Under the pieces are notes generated by a model. It did not search any database, had not been told where the DNA came from, and was given only the letters and a program-made list of their open reading frames with translations. A stretch of 61,196 bases of DNA, counting the filler, from Sphacelaria rigidula (lineage: Eukaryota): NCBI GenBank assembly GCA_964200075.2. It is 10 parts of 10 records of this genome, joined end to end, with 100 filler letters (N's around TTAATTAATTAA, not from the genome) between each part and the next. Parts side by side here need not be neighbours in the genome. Positions count along the whole stretch, not along the records: positions 42,910 to 48,938 come from CAXNAA020022695.1; 9 more parts are not named here. One strand, 5' to 3'. Below are positions 79-51,100 of this stretch, in pieces; positions within the stretch are counted from its first letter, which is position 1, and every line of letters starts with the position of its first letter. The translations under genes and the position numbers were made by a program.

Positions 79-1860
79 GAGGGGTTCAGAGTGTGACAAA
101 AAAAAAGTGGAATAACTCGCAAGAAAGGGTGCAAAAACGGATAGTATACCGTAGGAACGATCTTCGATGTCAAGACGAGTTTTGGCGGTTGTTACGTCGC
201 TTCAAGTCTATAACGGGAAAATCACCGGGGAGGTCTCGTAAAAGATCCGAGATGTCTCGATGCACCCGGATTCTTCGGGAACACAGCATCTGGCATTCCA
301 ACAACAACGAGGTTGTGAACCTCCACCTCCCATGGTTCCATACCTAAATACATCACTCGGAGCAGTTGGAGCGGTCACCAGCGGTGACGGGCGGCCTTTA
401 GTACAGGGGCATGTCTTTGCCAAGTTTGAGTCGTGGGCATAGAAGTACACGTTGCCGCAACTGCACAGTTTCGTAGAGTGTTAAGATAGTGCTGTTGGTG
501 CAGTAAACTCTCATAGAGCAAGTTATTGCCCCTCGGGCATGAAACGGGGGTACGGATCGTACGTCGCATTCCAAGAGATGGGATAAAGTCAGGATAGAGT
601 ACGCTGCACGGCATTACATACGGTCAGTACAGTCTAGTAGCTCTGTAACTGCACTGCTCATAGCGTCCTGGATAATCTAAACAAGCTGCGAATACTGGTC
701 TCGTACCCACGTCCTGTACACACTACGGTACAGTACGACAGTACATAACAGCGTAGTAGTCTGTTTTGACGGAGGCAACCTGTAGGGAGCGTGTTTGTCG
801 AGCATAGTAGCAGTCAGTGACACGATACAGATGTGGACACTGTAGTGTTATCATGTTTCATGGGGAGGCCCTTTGGTCCCTTTACTCCTTTCACGAACGC
901 GAGGGAACAGAAATACGCGACACTTCTAGTAACACTACAGGCTTGTGCATCACGACACATCTCAAAACCCGGCTGCATGGCTATCATGTGGAGTACACTG
1001 ACTAACCTTCAGGAGTGACATGATGACTACGGAATGGTGACGGTGCATAACACCCTCCTTCACGAGGGGCAATTCTTTTTCGAGCCCGGACTGCTCGAAA
1101 GCCGTGCGGGGCGGGTATTCCGCACTCGATGGAAATGATAAGATATGAAATATCTTATCGGCCGTTTTGGACTAGATTAGATCTCTTCAGGATGTAGAGC
1201 ATTTGCTTATTTAAACAAGCTAACTGTGAACGTCATCAGCAGGGGTGCTATATTCCGTCACTTGCATGCAGCTCTGGGAGAGCTATTCCTGCGTTTGATA
1301 CCGACTTCAACACACAGTCAACGTGACAGTCAAACCTGCAGGTGCCGGCACAACAAAACCCTTTGCTGTCTCCAGGAGAGCGAATGCCACCAGGCATACG
1401 GGTATTCCCCAAGCGAACTTCATATCTCTTGTCGATGTGTCTCGGGCGTGTTTGCACAGGACTAAACCGACGGTGCTGTTGCGTGGTCGTTTTCGAGCGC
1501 GGGATATGATCCCAAAAGTATCGCATTCACTATCGTCATGATGAATATTGTGTTTTTGAAAATCACATTTGACTCCTCTCTCCCGCACCACCTCCCGTAG
1601 CCCATCATCATGAGCATCAAGGGTATATATACGGCATGCAGAGCTACGCGCCTTGCTTTTCTTGTGTCCTTGGTGGATTAGGGGTGGGGGGAGTACTGTG
1701 ACTATTTTTTTCCGCGGTTTAGATGAACGAACACAAGAAAGCTGGGAAACTGACAGCAGTTCATGGACTCAGATTGTGAACGAATGGTACCATCTTCGAT
1801 ACTGTTGTATTCAAAATACCGCAGATCTCTGCGCTGGAGGCGGGGCTAAGGTTACCTATA

Positions 1861-3077
1861 CGAGCTGGGCCAGCCTGAAAATGGATTTTAGCTCTAAAAG
1901 TAATATCTCATCGACACAGACGAGTTGGGCCGTGATCCGCGTATCGTATTGATCGTCTAATCAAGGGGAAGGTGTCTATCTGCTCAAAAGTTTGGGTCCA
2001 TAATTTCTCGTCGTTGATTAAACCCCATTTCCAGTAATTCCTATACCTAATAACGGAGATGGCGTCCATACTAAAATCTCCATGAACCCCCCGATCGATG
2101 CATTCAGCGGATGACGACGAATTTTGGTGTGGGCATTCGCTAGAGCACGAGGAGACGATAAATACTCTGACCTTCACCTAATTCGTTATCTATCTCGAGA
2201 TATGATGCACTTGAGACTCGATACTCAAATCAATATATTGCGAGCAGAGGCACTAGTCTGGATGAACCAATCTGGATATATATCGCGTCTCAGTTTTTGA
2301 GAGTTATTCTATGAAATTTCGTATGTTGAACCACTGGTGCAAAATAAAATAAAATAAAAACAGCTTGGCATATTTTTCAATTTTTTTCTTCATCTTTTTC
2401 GTGTTTTTAGTGGAGTTTTTAGGAGAAACGAACATTGCGCTTAGGCCTTATCTCAATGTTTTAGCTCAATTAACAAAAAAAATGTGATTCGAAACTCAGC
2501 ATGGAAAACCACGAAGGTGTGCCGAATAGAAAAAATATGGGCCTCCATTTTTTTTTCATAGAGGTTGGGGCGTTCTCGTGAAGAAATTGCCTTCACCGTA
2601 CTAGAACGCCCCAAACCAGGGGAACAAATAATTGAAACAACCTAACCCACTGAGTTTTGTTAATTATGCCTTAGAGAGCTCCCAGACAAAATTCCAATGC
2701 ACGAAAACCAAACGTGGGCCGGTGAGTAGCCCGCAAAATATTGTTCCGAATTTCTACCGACCCGGTTTTTGAAAGGCCCATGCTACGGCCAATTTAGAGT
2801 TATTAAAGCGTAAAATTTGGTTTGGACAATGCATAGGGCATAACAAAAAAAGTTGCGTCGCTACCGAAAGTTTTTTTTTCATGAATCGAGGGTAATATAA
2901 TCAGTTTTAGTACCAATAAAATGCCCTTAACTCATGGAGAAAAAAAAGTTTTGGTGCCGGCGTAATTTTTTTCATGCTATATGCATTGTCCATTCCAAAT
3001 TTTACGCTCCAACTCTTAATATTGGGCGAAGCATGGATCTGAAAATTTCAAACCCACCTCTTGGCTGGCCCAGCTCG
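1861..3077. mobile_element. Non-autonomous TIR element, Tc1/mariner-like, with internal ~240-bp hairpin
   Basis: TA|CGAGCTGGGCCAGCC … GGCTGGCCCAGCTCG|TA: perfect 15-bp TIR flanked by TA; no transposase ORF; palindrome at ~2789-3024. Confidence 0.8.
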
Positions 3078-4220
3078 TACGGTGACTGGTGCTGTTTCCG
3101 AGCTCGGCTGTTTCTCGCAACCCGTGGCTCATGGATGATGACAGTGGTGTGTACTCATATGAATGCAGTATGACTAAGGAACATTGTTTGCACTTTAATT
3201 TGTATTTGAGGAATCAGCAGCCACAAATCGGGGGAGCCTACAGCGGCCCGTGACGAGTATAGTCAGGTATGTACTGTTGATATTCAATCTCCGTATGATT
3301 TTTGGCTACTGTGCATGACTGGATTGCGTGGCTGTTTCCTCTCTCAAAACAGATACGATGAAACGGTGTTGGCGTGCGCTCCTTGTCCCTTTGCAAACCA
3401 TGCCGACATGTACTTCGAGAATTTTCGAGTGTCATGTACTTAACTCTACTACTTCTGTACTACCATGCGCTATTTTTTTGACTGAATGTTCTGTGTTGTG
3501 CCGTCCTACTGTACATGCAGAACACACAGACATGTCTGTAAGGGACGGCAGCACTGCTGCCCTACTCGTGTACTGTGCTGTACCTTAGCGTGCAGCCACC
3601 TGATATTTCTTGTTTTGTGGAACTACCCTGCTGTTGCATAGTAGCCGTACCCATTGCATTGTGAATGTTGAGCACTGTACTGTTGCCAAGGGCTTCATGG
3701 GAGCCTGGAATCTGCCGCTCACATTTTCAAAATTAGTGCCGCTTCAAATGTTCCACTTCGTTCCTTATGATGTCATGGGCGTACAGAAGCTCTCGCACTC
3801 CACAAATGTAGGCGTGCACATGAGACTTGCGGAGCAGTCAATCAGCAAGTACGCCGCCCAAGCGATGGTGAGGGATAGTTAACCTGGGAGATGACAACGC
3901 AATCTTCGCAATATACATTATCTTGGCATGTCGATGGAGACGACTGTATTTCCAGGCATACCGCGGGACAACCATAACCATTACCGCATGCGAACATCGC
4001 CCTGCAACCAACGCCGCTGTGGTCGGCAACAGCATCTCACCACCTGTGCGGGCACGTCACCGGATAGACCCGTCTGATACGGTGGTACCATAGGGCAGAT
4101 TACTCTCCTCGCTCCAAGTTATACTTTGTCCGTTTTCGAGCTCATCGATAGCACAAGGTAAACCATCGATCCGGTTGCAGTTCCGAAATTGGCTCTTCCA
4201 ACTCGATCCCGCAACCGTAC

Positions 4221-4581
4221 GGTAACCCCTTGCCGCCTGACCCCTTATTAGTTGAACCATAGATAGACTTTCGATAAACGGCGGCTTTGCTCACGTTGGA
4301 AACGCCATACTACGCGAGTTGAGAAGGTGTCATTGAAAGTAAGTGGGTGATACGGAAGTTCACGTAAACCAAGGTAATCGCTAGCGTTTTTTTTGCTTGG
4401 TAGGGTAACCCCTCGCCGCCTGACCCCTTATTAGTTTAACCATAGACAGACTTTCTATAAACGGCGGCTTTGCTCACGTTGGAAACGCCATACTACGCGA
4501 GTTGAGAAGGTGTCATTGAGAGTAAGTGGGTGATACGGAAGTTCACTTAAACCAAGGTAATCACTAGCGTATTTTCTGCTT
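4221..4581. repeat. Tandem duplication, two ~180-bp units
   Basis: 4221-4398 and 4404-4581 align with only scattered substitutions. Confidence 0.92.
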
Positions 4582-4829
4582 ACTGTGTGAAATGGCCTGA
4601 CGAACAAACCAGCGGTAAAGAGCGAATCGAGCAGAAGGTTTAAGACCTCAGTCCAACATCACGTTTGCCCAACACGGGCTTGCGTGCAAGTGCTTGATGA
4701 TAGCATTGCGCAACTAAGTCGAGAGAAGAACAATGATGGACCACTGTACGGTACTGTATGTAGTCGTCTGCATCTTGCACAGATGTCTGTATGATGTCCC
4801 GAACGGTAGCACTTTGACCGCAAGCGTCA

Positions 4830-4990
4830 GTCACCTGCTGAATCGACATCAATTTTACTTGAAAAACTAATGCATGATCCAGATGACCTACCTTTCGCGG
4901 GCAAGGGGCCAACCCTTGGACGGCGAGGGTAGTCCATCTGGATCATGCATACTTACTCCAAGTGAACTTGACGCCGACTCGACAGATGAC
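4830..4990. repeat. Hairpin-type dispersed repeat; related units in alternating orientation at ~33950-34290
   Basis: atgcatgatccagatgacctacc and ggtagtccatctggatcatgcat are inverted; the same motif recurs three times in contig 6. Confidence 0.7.
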
Positions 4991-5109
4991 TTAATCTGGT
5001 CCAAGTATTGAAATGTGAGCAATCCTCCCACGGGACTGTTAGCCGAAAATATTGTACCGAAACGAGGCCCGGTGTATGAAGGATCAAGGGTTGACCCTTG
5101 GGCGCCCAC

Positions 5110-5511
5110 ACCGGGATGTGAAGGCGCCACACCGCCAGTAACCACGTGTCGACGGCAGCCGCAGGGGAAAGCGTGATGTGGTAGATGAAGCCCTCGTGCT
5201 GAGGCCGAGAGGTGGCAACACACAACTTCTCGGATCGGTTACGACCTGGGCCAGCTTTAAAAGCGGCTAAAAGTTGCTCACACCACAGCTTTCCCAGTTT
5301 CCCGAATGAACCCGACGTAAGCACATCACTGTGGAGTGTAGACCAACCTGGTAAAACACGGCACCGCCGCTGAATGAAAACAAAATCTGAAGAAAAATGT
5401 ACTCCATAGTGTATAACGTTAACGAGGGACGGGGGGAAAAAAAGATAATCTGTGGGGATTCGAACTCATGACCTCCACAATTCGAGTCTCCCATCACTTG
5501 ATTTACAGGGG
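5110..5511 (-). mobile_element. Possible tRNA-derived SINE (third family); 3' boundary uncertain
   Basis: Minus strand begins cccctgtaaatcaagtga…gagttcgaatcccc, giving A-box-like and B-box motifs at tRNA spacing. Confidence 0.45.
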
Positions 5512-5960
5512 TGCAGCAGCGTCACGGAAAATGTTGAACGCATGGCCCAATTTGACGACTATTGAGCTGAAATTTCGGGTAAACCTTATGCACCCAAGGA
5601 ATTGATACTTGACGCGAGCAGGTGCAGATTCTCTTTTTTTTTTCCTGGACTTGGGGCCTGTCTTAGCACTTTTTTTTTCGATCGAAAAAATGGGGCGGTG
5701 GGATCGATCTGAGTGAAACTTTCTCGTTTTGATGCAGTTGGGTGCAGATGGATTTTCAAGCTTTCGATCCAAAAAATAATACAATGAAAAGCGTGAAACA
5801 GCACATGGTCACTCGTGTACAGAACAGGCTGTACTGTCTGCAGTGCTTCCAAGCAGGGTGTGCTGAGTGCGTGTGTGTGTTTCGTGCAGGAAGATATAAA
5901 GGAGAAGCAGGCAACGTGCAGTGCAGACAGCCCAGGACTATGATTTCTCTCTGCTTACAA

Positions 5961-42909: not shown

Positions 42910-43083
42910 CGAAAAGTCAACACCCGCACACCTATGTCCCCCACCCCCCTACTCCCCCGGAGGGCCGAAATAAAAAAAAAAAGCATTGGTTTGTATGGTG
43001 GTCTAGCACCCTACCGCCCCCCCTGAGAGGTCCAAAATAAACAAATGGGACATAGGTGTGCGAGTTGTTTTCGTGCACCCCTG
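42910..43083. mobile_element. Small TIR MITE, left end cut by contig edge
   Basis: cgcacacctatgtccc and gggacataggtgtgcg are inverted; right end …tttcgtgcacccctg. Confidence 0.72.
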
Positions 43084-43243
43084 ATGGATCGAAAGATTTT
43101 ATTTATCCCGGCGCAGGTACTCAAAATAATAAATCCACACCCCACTTGTAAAACCCCGTGTTTGACGTACTAGGAGCGCGAGTGCAGCTTTCATAACGAC
43201 ACGCTCTACCCTCGGCCGATTTGCTGTTCCATGTGTGCTGCAG

Positions 43244-46200
43244 ATGGTGCACAATATCTTCTGCTCGTCTGATGCGGTGGTAGCCTCTGGCCGCCCCCCT
43301 CCAAAGTCCTCATACTCACGTTGCTGTGGAACCACGACTGCCCTCACATCAAGCTGAAAAAAACCATGCGCTTCACCAAATGCGATGTTTGCACTATTGC
43401 TAACGAGAGCCTCGACGTACAGCGCAGAAAGGGGGGCTCGGGGTGGCTCACGGAAGAGATGGCGGAGATAAAATTCACCTCCGAGATCACTACGAGGTGT
43501 GCACGTATGGGGTTTTTTGTACCGTAGTGGGAAATGTTGTACCTGATGACATCACCCTGCTTGTATCGGGGGGTGGAGGGGGGGTGTGCAGGAACTAGCC
43601 TGTCGTTTGTCGGTATTTGTGAGTGGTTCGATACCAAGCCCGTGGCAAGTTTTCACTGAATTTAATATAGTGCGTGGATGGGTGCAACACACCACCGTGC
43701 ACAACTGTGCTGCTGCCCGATGGTGACACGTTCAAATGCGCGTTGACGCCCGACTACGGTTGGTTCTGCGTCATTGAATCTGTGTACATACAGTTGTGAC
43801 CCCGAGATGACAACGCCTGGTAACATGACAGATCCTTCTTTGTCCGGCCGCGTAATCTGTTACATGGTTTGGCCGCGACCTTCTCCAGGACGTGAAGAGG
43901 TCGAGAGGGGTGTATATGGCAGCCAAGACACGTGCAAAGGCTACTCCGGACGAGTTGCTGTGCATAGCGATCGACGGGAGCGACCAGTCAAGCTACGCCA
44001 CACCGTACTTCAGGCAGGAGACCAAAGACACAAGCAAAGGGTGGAAGGTAACACGCTGTAGTAAACAAATATTCCGAAATGGCATGGTGTACAACCACTC
44101 AGTCGCCGCTCGATGTAATAGCGAAGGCACAAGTTTGCAGCCAATAAGGAGACGGTACGTACAAATGGCGACACTCTGTCCCCGTATGGCGCCCAGTCGC
44201 TTCGATACCCTCCGACTACTACATCAGTATTTATGCGGGAGTCCTGTGTAGAAGCGAGGATGATTGCGCATCTGTGTTGTGGTAGCTTTGACCCGGTTTC
44301 AATCGAAAGACGTTGTTGTAACGATGTAGCGATATAGGCTAAATAGGGGGGGTCGGGAGATGTGGGCCGCCAGTGTTGTATAATGTAACCCAATCTAATA
44401 CATCACCTCCTGCGCCTGCAACGTCACAGATGAGATTGAAACTCATAGGCGCTCTCGTGAGCGGAAGGATGTGCATGTTCTACACGCTGGGTTCGAATTG
44501 GGAATCAGGTGAGTTCGATCTGGATCCGGACAGACACGCAAGTCCTCGCACTCGCCTGTACCGTGCATGACAGGTAGATAGAAGAAAGTCAGTATACTCC
44601 CCCTACGTGAAAAGGGGGGGGGGGGGATGCTGCGGGGAGGGCGGGGGCACTGAGGAGAAGGTGGCGTGAAATTCTGCCCATATATCGACCAGACTGTGCG
44701 TCGACCATTATGTGGTCGCTGCTCCCGTCCCGTGACGCCACAGACCAGGACACTTCGACCAAACATTAGCGGCGACGCCTTACGTTTGCCGGGGGCGCTT
44801 TGACAGACATTTCGTCTTTGCTTCCGCGTGAAATCAGGGTCGAACCTCACCATCCAAGTCCTCCACGCCACGCTAACGGAGGTAACGGACAGTCTCAAAG
44901 AAGGCAAGATACTCTATCGAGCTCTGCACCTGCAGATGGATAACGGTTCAAGGTGAATGCATGACACGTGTGAGGTAGGGGTAAGAGAGACCGGGGGTTG
45001 GTACGTGCTCATACCGATACCCCGATCGCATTAATCCCTCTCGCCCCGCGCCCTATGGACCTTTCATTTGCCGAACAGGGAGAACAAGAACCGGATCTTC
45101 CTCGCATTCTTGCACATCCTGGTGTACCATGGTATGTTCGATTTCATCGAGCTGCACTTCGGACTGAAGGGTCACACCCACGACGGTGAGACCGCGCGGT
45201 GTAAAAGGCAATGAGGCGAAAGTTTCCCCCTTCCGTGGATACCAGTCGCTGCCTGACTTGTCGAATTGGTAAAGTAGCACACGGTGTTTTTTGTGGCCTA
45301 TACTGTCGTGCTTTATTCTTACGTGTACTCCTACCCCACGCCCTCGACCTCCCCCCGCACCCGGTCCCGCGCTACGCCAAAATAATGTACATCCCCGCAA
45401 CTGCGTATGCTGTGATGGGCGCTGGCTGGTGGACCACATGCGCGCGTCGGTGCTGGCGCCTTTGACCTCTTCAGAGATAGACCAGGTCTTCTCCAGGTAC
45501 GGGGCCTCGTCTCCATGCTGTCCTGAGTTTTCGCCCAAAACACGGGATGTTACAAATGGGGTAGGGATTTTTACTGGGTATTGGCGCCGGGAGAAATAAA
45601 GAGATAGAGCACGTCTTCACCACGTAGGGAGACTCGTCTCCATACTGTAGCGAGTTTTCACCCAAAACACGGAGTTTTACACATGGGGTATGGATTTTTT
45701 ATTGGGTATTGGCGCCAGGTTCATTAAAATCCTCGTATCCACACCACATGTTCGAAATATGGTTCCGTTTCTTCACTTACTGGTAGCCATTGACAACTAC
45801 AACATGCCATACAGATTTGGATTTCGAAAACCGAAACGTTGGGGTCGCAGATGAAAAGCCCATTTCAGCGTCCATTCGGATCGGCGAAAGACCCCGGAAT
45901 TGGTTTTTCACCTATGGGACCCCAACGTTTCGGTTTTCGAAACCCAATTTTGTATGGCGTGTAGTTGTTGTCAATAACGATCAGTAGGTGAAGAAATGGG
46001 ACCATATTTCGAACATTTGGCGTGGATACGAATATGTTGAGCGCAGATACCCAATAAAAAATCCGTGCCCAATTTGTACAATCCCATGTTCCAAGCGGAA
46101 GAGGCTTGCGTCACTTTGTTCCTAGAGAACATCATAGCACGGCATCTTTCAACAAATCCCAAGGTAACCTAGAGGATAATGTGTTGGGAAGACATTTCCA

Positions 46201-48136
46201 TACGTGCAGTTCCCTACAGAGGTTGACATTGCACAACAGGCGGCGGCACCGTTGAGGATTGAGTCTCCGGATTATTACATCTGTTTCTGACGAATAGGGT
46301 GGGAGCCGGCCTCAAGAAGACGGACGCCGCAACTCGGACCCTTCTCGGTCAACGTGTCTTGGAGTCCTACAGGGCGGGGCAACCCAACTTCAACGTTGGC
46401 CTGACGCACTTGAACAACTGTGCGAATATCCGGGACCTTCTTGTCGGCTGCATGTATCCGACTCCCTCTGTCACGAAGCCGCAGGCGTTCAAGGTGTCGA
46501 GAGATCCTACGGACGGCTTAGTCAAGATGCAAGTGCAGGAAAGAAGCTACAGGGACGATTGGGGCGTGATCAACAGGTGCATCGTGTAGGATAGCATCCG
46601 AGGATTGAAATATATATATATATATATATATTCGCAGCTTCTTCAGGTTTTCTTTCACAACTAGTCGCGGTTGCTCTTTGAGGGTCGAAAGACAGGGTCC
46701 GATGAGAAAGGGTTGAGCATGGAGCATAACATGTATGAATAGTGCAAACCGTGGCCGTCCGCTCGTTTGCGATGCTTCGAAAAAAAGGAACGGCGAGTAC
46801 GGCGAGGGGTACATGACCATCATAAAGAGCTGGCCTGACCTGCGGGATACACCTGATCACCCACGGAAAGTGGTGGACGACCACACCCTGAACCAGCACC
46901 GCTTGTGCATCGAGGCTTCCGAGCGACGGATCGAGACTTACTGCCACAGCGTCGGTGAGTGTCTGAGCATCCCAACTACGGTGGTGCCTGTACGGCCGCT
47001 GGAAATTGCACGGGTGATCTTGGTGAAGCATCACCCAAGCACCCCCCCACCGAGAAGTCTTAGTCATGACCTGGCCCAGTTGGTCAGTGCCATGCGTCAC
47101 GGTAGTGCGAAAAAGGATAACGTTGTCGTATTTGCTATAGACACGGGTAGGCACCGATTTTGACACTTGCCGGAACAGGGACCCTTGTACGTACGGCGGA
47201 CCATCTGGCAAGGGCCACCTACGTCGAGTTATGGATAGTCGCGCTCCGTGTGTTACGTTTTCGTACACAAACTCCCGTGATTCACCCGCACGGTGATTTT
47301 TCTCGATAGGACAGTTCTTTCCCATCTTATCATTAATGGAGGCTGCACGCACCGTGCTATACGCCAATATACCGTCTAATAACACAGGTGAGCTGCCGGA
47401 GGGGTTGTCGGCGAACCAATATCACAGGGCGTTGATGTCGCAACTGGCGTCAAGCGTTATCGACGTTGGGAAGTCGACGCCTGTTCCTTTCGACTGGAAT
47501 CTGTCCCTGTATAGTAGGCCCGAGTCAAACGAGAGCACAGATAATGATGGCGGGGCTTCGGACTCAGGTACACGCGATAGCACGGGTGATGCGGCTCGGA
47601 CCCTTGGAGTGAGGAGCGATCCGTCTTCTACGGTGGGGGACAGAGTTGCCGGGAGTGCAGTAGCGACTGGAGCTTTCCCCGTCCCACAAGAAGGGGGGGG
47701 GAGGAGGCGCGGCCTGAGTAGAACGCCGGGGCCGCTATTGAGGGTGGAGGTTGGAGAGTTTGTTGCTTTTTCGCAGCCGAAGTGCTCGCCGTTGTCGGTC
47801 TGTGTCGGGAAAATATTTTCCATGAAGAAGGGGGTAGATGGGGACGAGGTGGAACTTCAGTGGCACATGCCAAAGAAGGTAGATGCCAACGCACCGCGGT
47901 CAAGATATGGGAGAGGAGGGTGGACCCCCAAGTATCGCATGGTAGACGGGAAACGGGTACGCTCGATTTCCTTCGAGCACGTTGCAGCAATAAGCTGCAA
48001 ATTCGCTAAGCTTCCCACATCCACGAAACTTCCGCATCATGTGTGGTCCACTATTGCAGAAACTCCACAAGCACAAAACGCTATAGAGGACGTGGGGGAT
48101 GAAGATATTATGAATGTCGGAGATGAAGACGAGTGA
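43244..48136 (+). pseudogene. Spliced Sola-like (DUF7869-type) DDD transposase gene, 5'-partial and frameshifted; exons 43244-43496, 43889-44047, 44430-44508, 44838-44952, 45079-45185, 45475-45496, 46298-46576, 46788-46954, 47310-48136
   Basis: GT-AG introns with compatible phases rebuild RFTKCDVC, IAIDGSDQ, GSNLTIQVL, LHLQMDNGSRENKNR, HFGLKGHTHDEIDQVFSR; two apparent 1-nt deletions in the first exon. Confidence 0.85.
45667..46090. repeat. Long intronic foldback, ~200-bp arms, ~30-nt loop
   Basis: cgaaaaccgaaacgttggggtc and gaccccaacgtttcggttttcg are inverted; pairing continues outward. Confidence 0.9.
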
Positions 48137-51100
48137 TAGGCTAAGAGTTGACCGACACCCGGCGTTCGGGGCTTGTCATGTGCAGCAATTCCCGTTGCAC
48201 CACCGATTTTGTCCGGTTGTGTACTGGCTTCAATTCGCGCGCGTGATAGTCGCCTTGTTATCGGAAATATTGTGCAGCTATATTGCTGTCGATATGGTCT
48301 TGGTCGCGGTTGGTTACAGCTTCTGCGTATATCAAGTTGTGCAGCGTTCTCGGGAATACAGGCGGTTCGGCCGCAGGTGCAATAATTACAATCCTCGCAA
48401 CACAATATCTCTCATAGGAGGGATTGTTTTCATGGCTTGGCCCAAAATGTTGTTAACAACTACCTGCTGATGATGAAATACTCTTTTCCATCGCAAAAGT
48501 GAACAAACCTGGAATTCGCTCACGACAAGGCGGTTTGTTTGTAAGACGTCAGTGGCATATGTATCGCGGGTTGAGGGTTTGTCCCTCGTGATATACAGTG
48601 TTGACTTGATACTCGGAACAGTTGCGATACTTCATCTCTGCACTTGTCGAAACATTATTCGAAACTTGTCCTCTTACTGTTGTTAGCGGAGTTTGCAGCC
48701 AAAAACGGATGAATAAACACTACCCTTTAGAATGTCTCGGTTTTCCACCAATGCCCTACCCAAGCATCTTCCTACGGAGATTATGAAAGTATCACCAGTT
48801 ACCGCACCAGGATTCTCCAACGTCGCGACCAAGCATTTTCGCTTGAAACCCAGTGAAACATCAACAGGTTTGCCGGCAGGAGTTTGCACCAATGTCCGAG
48901 GTAAGAGTTTTGTCCATTAATGATGCAGGCACAAGCGGNNNNNNNNNNNNNNNNNNNNNNNNNNNNNNNNNNNNNNNNNNNNTTAATTAATTAANNNNNN
49001 NNNNNNNNNNNNNNNNNNNNNNNNNNNNNNNNNNNNNNGCGAGGAGCGCCCCGCGCCTCGGGGCCGGGCGGGGGCGGCGGGGGGGGGCGCGTCGGGGGCG
49101 GGGCGGCGGTGCTGGGGGGGGGCTGCCATGTGCTACATCAAGACGTCTCTTTTGTCGACAACAGTCTCCTCCTCTTGGAGAGAAGTCACCATACCAACAG
49201 TATCCGCAGAACATCAATCGTACGGAAACTAGCAGAACACTAACTGATCCCGCACTGCTATTACTTGCCTACAAAGCGGTCCCTTGCCCCACTCGCGGTT
49301 ATCCCACCAACCCGAGTCGACCTTCACCCGAACAAAATGCAGGTCAATTACCCTCGGCCACAGGGAGGTCCAACCTAGAAACCTTCACAGTGCCAAGGAA
49401 AATATGCCTACGGACAACTGGGGTAAGGCATCACGACGCGGCGCTATGAACAAAACCTCGGATCCTAGCCTGTCTAGGACCCATACGGGTCCATTAAGTG
49501 GTTCTGCGGAAACTAGCGCGGGGATTGACCGCCCCGCCGAGCCACGATATGCAGTCACGGTTAAGGTATCATCCATGGTGGGAAGAAATATACTTGCCAC
49601 AGACATCATCTCGAAAAATCGTTACTCTTCCAATCAACTCCAAAAACCGCGTGTCGCTCCGTGCGGCAGTGTACACACTTTGACTATAATACACTGTTTA
49701 CACTGTCCGGAACTTCCGCGAAAAAAAAACGTCTTGAACCAAACAAAACCGCAAAACCCACCGCGTGATCTCATCCATGTCTATGAGTAGTCCCTCCTCT
49801 CCAAAGGGCCGTCGATTACGCCGGCCGTCGAGCAAGGAATAACGGCAAATTAGATTCCCAGAGCTTTTTGTGGGAATCAACTAACAAGAAAAAAATGAGT
49901 GCTACTTTTCTTTTTGTTCGTTTCCGGCAGCGAGTTTCAGTACACACCAGCTGTTTTTCAGGCTTGTGACACACAAGTGAGCCAGCCGTGGACACGACCT
50001 CGGAGATATATCTCTTACAAATCATCGAAACTTGTGTAGTGCCAAACCCTCCGCGAATTATTTATTACCGCTAGCCTTATATAATATACATGAACCACAC
50101 CGGAGTTCTCACGTCAGGCTACCCGTTCCGCCTCCTCCACAAAACCAAATCCTGTACATACACCATGCGAATGCGCTTTCGTCCGGGACAGACGGGAACG
50201 GATTCATCATCTACTATCAATCTACATCGCAGACCACAGGGTCAGTAACGCTCAGGCTCATCATCAAGTGTCAGGCCGAAAACGCCGAACAGGGTTCTTG
50301 ATCCACCCACCGATGCAAATGAAAGGGGCGAGTACGAAATCAAAATTGGTCCTGCGAACAAAATCCCACAAGAGGCCAAAAGCTCGTGCGTTCCACACCG
50401 AAACAACGACACACCTTTTGGCTTTCCTCAACAAACATAAAACATTACGAGGTACACATTCGTGTTGCGGGAAATAACCCATACGGGAGCTTTTCTTCCC
50501 GAATCCGCGTCCTCCATCAATTACTCACAAAATCCAGCACACAATTTTTTTGGTCTTTCATTTTACACTAAGATCCAAGATCCACGCACACTCTGGCCAG
50601 GAACAGCCAAGGTGATCGCGATGACAATCCGGCACACCGTTTTTCTTCTTCTTTCCACAGTAAATACAAGCACACTCTGGCCAGGAACAGCCAGGCGCGG
50701 TGGCTATACGTATGACATACCGCGCATGCATCTTGCCCCATTCCGAATCACATTTTGACAATCTCAGGAAAAACATTAAAAATATATATCAAAGTAACAG
50801 CTCGTAGCGTTTTTTTTTGCCGGCACGACACAAGAGCATGCAAATTTCCAAGGTCGTGCTCTGTAGGGTACAATATTCCCGAAAGTAGGGGATTCTTGGT
50901 TGGCATCACACCCTCGACAACCGTCAACAGTTGCAATAGTTCTATACGTTTTTCAGTAAAAAAGTTGTATCTTGCACCTTTTGACCATTGTCCGGGGTGT
51001 GGTGGCACACCAAGCCACACCGGGGCGTGAACCGAACATTCACCGGTATGGTTCCGCAGGGTATAGAGCACTGTTGCGAGCAATCCGTCGTGGCTCGGCA

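Follow-up and report, generated by a model that had tools for sequence, protein, structure and literature searches.

We examined a 61,196-nucleotide stretch of the Sphacelaria rigidula genome assembly (GCA_964200075.2) – hereafter 'the window' – and identified, at positions 43244–48136 of its plus strand, an intron-rich gene whose product belongs to the protein family DUF7869 (PF25273). It is likely a decayed copy, truncated at its 5′ end, of the transposase gene of a cut-and-paste DNA transposon that brown algae carry as a multi-copy family, most likely Sola1.

The window consists of ten contigs of 6,029–6,030 bp separated by N44-TTAATTAATTAA-N44 linkers (18 N runs, or nine linkers, in all). 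The contigs are apparently ordered by length, so adjacent ones are not neighbours in the genome and only one, the 6,029-bp contig at 42910–48938 (CAXNAA020022695.1), bears on the gene. It supplies 334 bp of context before the exons and 802 bp after them.

Nine spliced exons encode a DUF7869 protein

A preliminary description of this sequence had proposed nine exons with GT–AG boundaries and matching phases, and that structure holds. The stop-to-stop frames of the plus strand contain the exon pieces it had listed and, with boundaries set by GT/AG and phase, all introns run GT..AG with compatible phases. The first exon on the contig, which is not the first exon of the gene, spans 43244–43496, encodes a CxxC...H region (the CxxC is CDVC, 43381–43392, part of an RF.KC..C motif conserved in relatives) and contains both of the frameshifts described below. 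Exon 2 (43889–44047) encodes IDGSDQ from position 43970, with the predicted first catalytic Asp codon at 43973–43975. The 79-nt exon 3 (44430–44508) is followed by exon 4 (44838–44952), which ends ..LQMDNGS(R) and includes the second such codon (44939–44941), and by exon 5 (45079–45185), which encodes (R)ENKN...GHTHD. Exon 6 is a micro-exon of 22 nt (45475–45496) that encodes EIDQVFS and thus the third, invariant Asp (codon 45480–45482). The 279-nt exon 7 (46298–46576) encodes the C-terminal half of the DUF7869 core and precedes exon 8 (46788–46954), around which the gene models of two relatives, P0001 and P0003, run on into the same introns. The last exon (47388–48136) encodes a low-complexity linker, a beta-rich C-terminal domain (~47735–48040) and an acidic tail, and ends in a TGA at 48134–48136. 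With an N placed at both breaks, the joined reading has 643 residues and no internal stop before this TGA. All of the motifs named in the preliminary description are therefore present, including the two that introns divide: MDNGS/RENKN is split by intron 44953–45078 and GHTHD/EIDQVFS by intron 45186–45474.

To compare the contig with other data, we used four public sequencing runs at 95% likeness, three of them DNA-like (X1, X2 and X4) and one RNA-like (X6). The exact contig occurs in none of the runs (the best share of sampled words was 0.41), and the best-matching DNA run may be the source sample itself. Contigs from X6 skip all eight introns exactly from GT to AG – 43497–43888, 44048–44429, 44509–44837, 44953–45078, 45186–45474, 45497–46297, 46577–46787 and 46955–47387 – each skip equalling the assigned boundary after the shift that the tool states, whereas X1, X2 and X4 contigs skip none of the eight. 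The junctions, which the preliminary description had wanted checked, are thus supported throughout, as is the host-like intron density it had noted (at least eight introns). Depth in X6 is ~215–510 over the listed exon pieces and the joint-bearing contigs and 6–23 over four listed intron pieces, as expected of RNA that includes some unspliced precursor. The case that X6 makes for transcription of the family is strong but not final. X6 cover over 47533–48135 is almost nil, leaving the 3′ half of the last exon without transcription support.

Protein comparisons recover the same structure. Using the Pylaiella littoralis relative (P0005) as a tblastn query, we found the exons in order and, within the window, solely on this contig. 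Three of the eight exon pieces match DUF7869 at adjoining profile positions (exon 4 at 36–70, exon 5 at 71–105 and exon 7 at 118–188), a collinearity that correct splicing predicts. Exon 5 alone scores 34.1 bits, above the gathering score of 26, and exons 4 and 7, collinear with it, score 20.8 and 19.8. The full family match is seen in relatives: P0005, P0072 and P0073 score 144–158 bits, and all 18 aligned relatives match DUF7869. These results bear out the family assignment made in the preliminary description.

Brown-algal gene models, all unnamed, provide the closest relatives. A second S. rigidula protein (P0001) is 90% identical in exon 7 and 83% identical over 197 residues, P0005 is 66% identical over 335, and an Ectocarpus fasciculatus protein (P0072), the closest full-length relative, is 54% identical over 619 columns; an Ascophyllum nodosum protein (P0008) is 52% identical to P0001, a figure that does not refer to the joined reading. 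At 29–30% identity we found 'uncharacterized' proteins that include two from animals, P0064 (Tubulanus) and P0074, and Ptychodera proteins are further distant relatives. Atlas clusters with DUF7869 cover Tardigrada, Arthropoda, Chordata and Streptophyta, and one unnamed look-alike cluster comes from diatoms.

An alignment of ten sequences shows no variation in the D of DN, in NK of ENKN or in GHTH, DQ and FS, all of which are intact in the window; the first Asp, within I/V-DG-x-D, is conserved in every aligned sequence that reaches it. Relatives have Cys or Thr directly after DN, where the window has Gly. The preliminary description had read this as a departure from Cys; the substitution is real, and given that some relatives have Thr there, the aligned sequences suggest no clear defect.

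Bacterial members of the family were considered, and none was demonstrated. The 12 loci concerned are all contigs of metagenome-assembled genomes (MAGs) labelled as bacterial, and they resemble eukaryotic DNA that was binned with bacteria. Two of these contigs, L082 and L083, are long (589 kb and 733 kb); on both, the DUF7869 gene is split in an intron-like, eukaryotic manner and long tandem repeats are present. These two bins are probably contaminated or mislabelled, their sequence being eukaryote-looking.

The gene continues upstream of the contig

The ATG at 43244 was rejected as a start codon. It stands immediately after a splice acceptor (..ctgcag), which closes the 3′ part of an upstream intron at 42910–43243, the preceding exon being off the contig. 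The X6 contig that covers 43243–43494 extends upstream by 57 letters that can be placed nowhere on the stretch, and the 30 of these that were displayed continue the frame, by eye, with P0005-like residues. Relatives are longer as well, by 125–170 N-terminal residues: before the point at which they begin to match, P0005, P0073, P0064 and P0074 all carry a further conserved stretch of at least 125 residues. The RNA extension and the longer relatives together imply at least one further 5′ exon, a protein longer than ~670 residues and a contig that begins within an intron. The ~670 residues that the preliminary description had assigned to the nine exons were thus wrong as a length, in that the joined reading has 643 and the gene is incomplete at its 5′ end, though the exons themselves stand.

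The missing exon was not found elsewhere in the window, where tblastn with the first 130–175 residues of P0005 and P0073 returned chance-level rows (E ≥ 0.2) and a 14-nt motif from the loose RNA end gave one match with two mismatches (0.44 expected). At the other end, the further ~70–90 C-terminal residues of P0072 and P0075 had no match after the window's stop, and the last exon as a query found no longer protein among 4,841 candidates.

Two frameshifts mark a decaying copy

The preliminary description had placed two single-nucleotide deletions near 43316 and 43474, and both positions are right. A T is missing at 43315–43316 and an A is missing from the A run at 43469–43473; in each case other contigs carry the additional base, and at the second the P0005 alignment also calls for it. 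The extra T behind 43315 accounts for all of the depth in X4 (41.7/41.7) and X6 (324.8/324.8) and for none in X1 (0/938.5). The extra A behind 43469 accounts for all of it in X1 (722.3/722.3), X4 and X6 and for about half in X2 (840.2/1744). P0005 stays in frame through both sites, and restoring the T yields the frame ..YFT.LW..DC, as in P0005. In the transcribed copy, neither site interrupts the frame.

Both deletions fall in single-base runs, of T and of A, and the extra A is present in all of the X1, X4 and X6 depth, as would be expected if the frameshifts were homopolymer errors of assembly in an otherwise intact copy. We judge this quite improbable. Each deletion recurs in one or more of the other DNA-like data sets (the first throughout X1, the second in about half of the X2 depth), which argues for copy variants rather than pure assembly slips. 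The sequence differences are also of the wrong kind for such errors, since those listed are mainly transitions and not indels. Forty differences from the runs were listed and 136 more lay outside this set; 11 of the 40 are exonic, comprising four silent and seven missense changes. At 46392, 46462, 47740 and 45152 it is the window that deviates, the other contigs having a residue found in at least one relative (P0001 for 46392 and 46462). The two frameshifts and these private missense changes at conserved sites leave the copy incapable of making the enzyme. The contig copy is a dead, decaying member of a multi-variant, expressed family, as the preliminary description had suspected of it.

The modelled core is RNase H-like with three aspartates in canonical positions

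We modelled the fold on P0072 using AlphaFold2 (AF2) and 18 aligned sequences. The model has a mean predicted local distance difference test score (pLDDT) of 70.2, with ~85–92 in the core, and a predicted template modelling score (pTM) of 0.61. Its predicted core runs β1-β2-β3-α1-β4-α2-β5-α3, the order of an RNase H-like fold, with three acidic residues placed by the model at the end of strand 1 (D78), the end of strand 4 (D163) and the first turn of the next helix (D205). The RNase H-like fold with three Asp that the preliminary description had anticipated is thus supported by the P0072 model, and the corresponding codons are intact in the window.

In a wide structural search the best match was the transposase domain of Metnase (Z 9.0, 175 residues aligned, root-mean-square deviation 3.5), followed by Mos1 (Z 8.9), retroviral integrases (Z 8.0–8.8) and then IstA, TnsB, Sleeping Beauty, Tn5, Mu and Hermes. 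These Z values are barely above the background of 7–8 that the tool states, though the list is coherent and spans the whole core (model residues 53–244). Foldseek gave no match at E ≤ 0.001, with a list dominated by RNase H-like proteins, and the family profile found none among PDB sequences at E ≤ 10.

The architecture extends beyond the core. Aligning a brown-algal profile with one built from four distant relatives, of which two are animal proteins and two come from contigs that are unassigned or mislabelled, gave a match of 491 columns (E 7e-45) that starts with RF.KC..C, crosses the core and reaches the beta-rich domain at the C terminus. That domain matched no Pfam family and no named Atlas cluster, and pairwise BLASTP against the animal proteins gave E values of 0.061 and 0.46. 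The C-terminal piece of the window itself gave a poor model (pLDDT 50.5). In the P0072 model, residues 446–551 resembled Tudor, BAH and EF-P barrels with Z 5.4–5.9, values within the tool's background; a chromatin-reading role for the domain is a guess. We also considered a broader proposition that we hold to be doubtful: the gene may represent an old, vertically persisting transposase lineage of brown algae with a fixed host-type architecture, seen in the shared intron positions and the Asp-bearing micro-exon, in which a Tudor/BAH-like C-terminal chromatin reader steers insertion. If that were true, splicing and chromatin reading would, besides the DDD core, control where and when the superfamily moves.

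A full-length protein of the family would comprise an N-terminal region (off the contig here), the CxxC...H segment, the RNase H-like DDD core and the beta-rich C-terminal domain, with catalytic Asp residues expected to follow strand 1 (IDGSDQ) and strand 4 (MDN) and to open the helix that comes next (IDQ). The host transcribes and splices the gene, of nine or more exons, as happens with many brown-algal transposon genes. An intact member may then bind the element's inverted ends, excise the element and reinsert it; the copy on this contig could at most be mobilised in trans.

Transposon or host gene

Several observations favour a multi-copy transposon. On the 6 kb of the contig lie 637 X1 contigs, 513 of them 95–99% alike, and sites are split within a single run (in X2, 840/1744 at 43469). 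P0001 derives from a second copy whose faulty gene model reads intron 4 nearly letter for letter as in the window; the near-identity of this intron implies that the copies arose as DNA, introns included. A search with P0001 among representatives of 50%-identity clusters returned 62 hits at E ≤ 0.001, of which 26, short fragments for the most part, reach E ≤ 1e-10. The contig itself is a short unplaced piece with very high-copy sequence at its bounds.

Against these stand points that favour a domesticated transposase – a DUF7869-derived host gene kept for a cellular function, with the window as a pseudogenised paralogue – or that otherwise weigh against the transposon interpretation. Conservation of the family extends over three orders of brown algae, with shared intron positions, which a host gene would also show: relatives in Ectocarpus, Pylaiella, Ascophyllum and Sphacelaria are 54–68% identical, P0005 and P0072 keep DDD and GHTH, and intron positions are common to copies 63–69% identical in exon 7 (the P0003 and P0004 models extend into introns 7 and 8). 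X6 is rich in spliced contigs, although the label 'RNA?' on that run is the tool's guess and none of the runs listed for the contig is recorded as RNA. Word depth does not equal copy number. The listed differences are not depleted in exons (11/40, with 32% of bases exonic), and so give no sign of purifying selection at this depth. Finally, neither the element's inverted ends nor a target-site duplication is present on the 6,029-bp contig; because the ends are not on it, we infer mobility rather than observe it. Nevertheless, the many variants per site in the DNA runs, the 83%-identical second copy with its near-identical introns, the unplaced contig between high-copy repeats and the mostly fragmentary cluster representatives all speak for the transposon, and an active catalytic triad is a transposon's requirement. 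On this balance the transposon interpretation, already advanced in the preliminary description, is favoured, and domestication is unlikely.

Which superfamily the transposon belongs to is less firmly settled. That DUF7869 corresponds to Sola1 is an assumption taken over from the preliminary description, and we found nothing that links the two by sequence. Sola1 transposases have a DDD catalytic triad, and three invariant Asp are present in the window reading. Two grounds make the Sola1 label probable. The transposable element (TE) table for Ectocarpus, as excerpted, includes Sola-1 and not Zator (PMC12477816), and the DUF7869 clusters include Streptophyta and Arthropoda, groups in which Sola1 elements have been named in the literature (Sola1-1_PPa; insects). 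A transposon of another kind, either Zator/ISAzo13-like or of a still unnamed DDD superfamily, is somewhat unlikely. One relative (P0057) matches PF07592 (DDE_Tnp_ISAZ013) with E 0.0038 over GHTHEDIDQ, which also counts against Sola1, and PF07592 is annotated on 11% of the members of one Atlas cluster; published accounts pair Zator with ISAzo13 and give Zator 3-bp duplications (PMC10045372, PMC5718144). The modelled fold, of the short mariner/integrase kind, would suit such an element, and our literature search found no paper under the name DUF7869 or PF25273. The P0057 match is nevertheless confined to 1 of 18 relatives and scores 16.7 bits against a cut-off of 26.9, and PF07592 matched 0/8 exon pieces at E ≤ 1. 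We retain Sola1 as the probable label.

In 80 metagenome loci and the 12 MAG loci, three scripts and an all-against-all BLAST found no clean inverted ends with a duplication. Three of the loci, L076 (~180–5520), L089 and L092, carry many copies of a short palindrome (~16–19 nt) on both sides of the DUF7869 gene; the palindrome of L076 differs in sequence from that of L089 and L092. These arrays are possibly binding sites of the transposase near the element's ends.

Repeats in and around the gene

The micro-exon lies in a 128-bp tandem duplication, its first copy at 45473–45600 and its second at 45600–45728 on the plus strand (repeat matches of 83% and 82%), so that the micro-exon and the first part of its intron occur twice. 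The second copy keeps the AG and the GT, and its pseudo-exon at 45602–45623, which is used by no X6 joint, would read IEH for IDQ. An X2 contig skips 45558–45722 and has 39 other letters instead, and some copies seem to be without the duplication.

Intron 6 also contains a palindromic insert resembling a miniature inverted-repeat transposable element (MITE) at 45666–46090, with inverted arms of 124 nt (85%) and 50 nt (80%) and termini AACAYGG... CCAA stands on both flanks, a possible 4-bp duplication ending in A. The X1 word depth reaches 51,355 at 45925–46125, within this insert, compared with ~500–1,800 over the gene, and the insert belongs to a very high-copy family. The contig starts exactly at the arm of an inverted-repeat element (42910–43072; 42922–42940 pairs with 43047–43065 at 95% complementarity), which is probably another MITE in the upstream intron.

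Over the last 200 bp of the contig (48739–48938), word depth is 32,878 in X1 and 20,602 in X2, and at 48929 contigs continue into other sequence; a high-copy repeat probably ended the assembly there. After the stop codon, at 48408–48481, contigs of X2, X4 and X6 skip 74 bases (with AA instead) and those of X1 skip 72, which is an indel difference between copies. An Rfam search of the window gave no match. Of 15 other long open reading frames of the window, one, on another contig (10485–11195, minus strand), has a weak match to the Copia-type RVT_2 domain (E 7.3e-4).

Implications for annotation

Spliced transposon genes have already been described in brown algae, and the gene in the window is a further member of this kind – in most respects an ordinary decayed transposon copy. 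What it adds is a junction-supported exon map for one brown-algal member, the placement of three predicted catalytic Asp on a modelled RNase H-like core in a family without a solved relative, a 22-nt exon that carries the third of these residues, and a shared, unnamed C-terminal domain. It also illustrates how calling genes from open reading frames or automatically shreds the DUF7869 family: P0001, P0003, P0004 and P0075 are fragments that run into introns. Such shredding means that DUF7869/Sola1-type transposons are probably under-counted in intron-rich algae.

Comparison with known systems

The most direct point of comparison is Sola1-1_Ec32 of Ectocarpus, described in PMC12477816 as a 21.5-kb 'giant' DNA transposon with 282-bp inverted ends (AACCG..CGGTT), a 4-bp duplication and a ParB-methyltransferase gene. 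The same paper reports that RNA-seq was used to curate intron-containing TE gene models of Ectocarpus and that giant families often have pseudogenised transposase genes; its TE table has 'spliced' 23 times, the quoted rows with 'spliced gene' being DNA transposons (PMC12477816). A 4-bp target-site duplication of AWWT type is given as a hallmark of Sola1 elsewhere (PMC3845634). The family studied here is likewise brown-algal and probably a multi-copy DNA transposon, and the window protein has its closest full-length relative in Ectocarpus fasciculatus; the inverted ends, the duplication and the ParB-methyltransferase of Sola1-1_Ec32 have no counterpart on the 6-kb contig.

With the DUF7869 proteins of animals, plants and protists, the window protein shares the core, the invariant motifs, the CxxC before the core and the beta-rich C-terminal domain. 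Many of the metagenome relatives match over 250–320 residues unbroken and look intron-poor, whereas the window gene has at least eight introns and, unlike them, isolates a 22-nt exon with the third Asp.

Among transposases of other families, Zator/ISAzo13 shows a weak likeness around the third catalytic residue, in a single relative (P0057); its PF07592 match lies under the Pfam cut-off and occurs in 1/18 relatives. The P0072 model resembles Tc1/mariner transposases (Mos1, Metnase) and retroviral integrases in its RNase H-like fold and in having its second and third acidic residues close together (a spacing of 42 residues) – although these differ in having no sequence-level match and other flanking domains, and their Z values of 8–9 lie near the tool's background.

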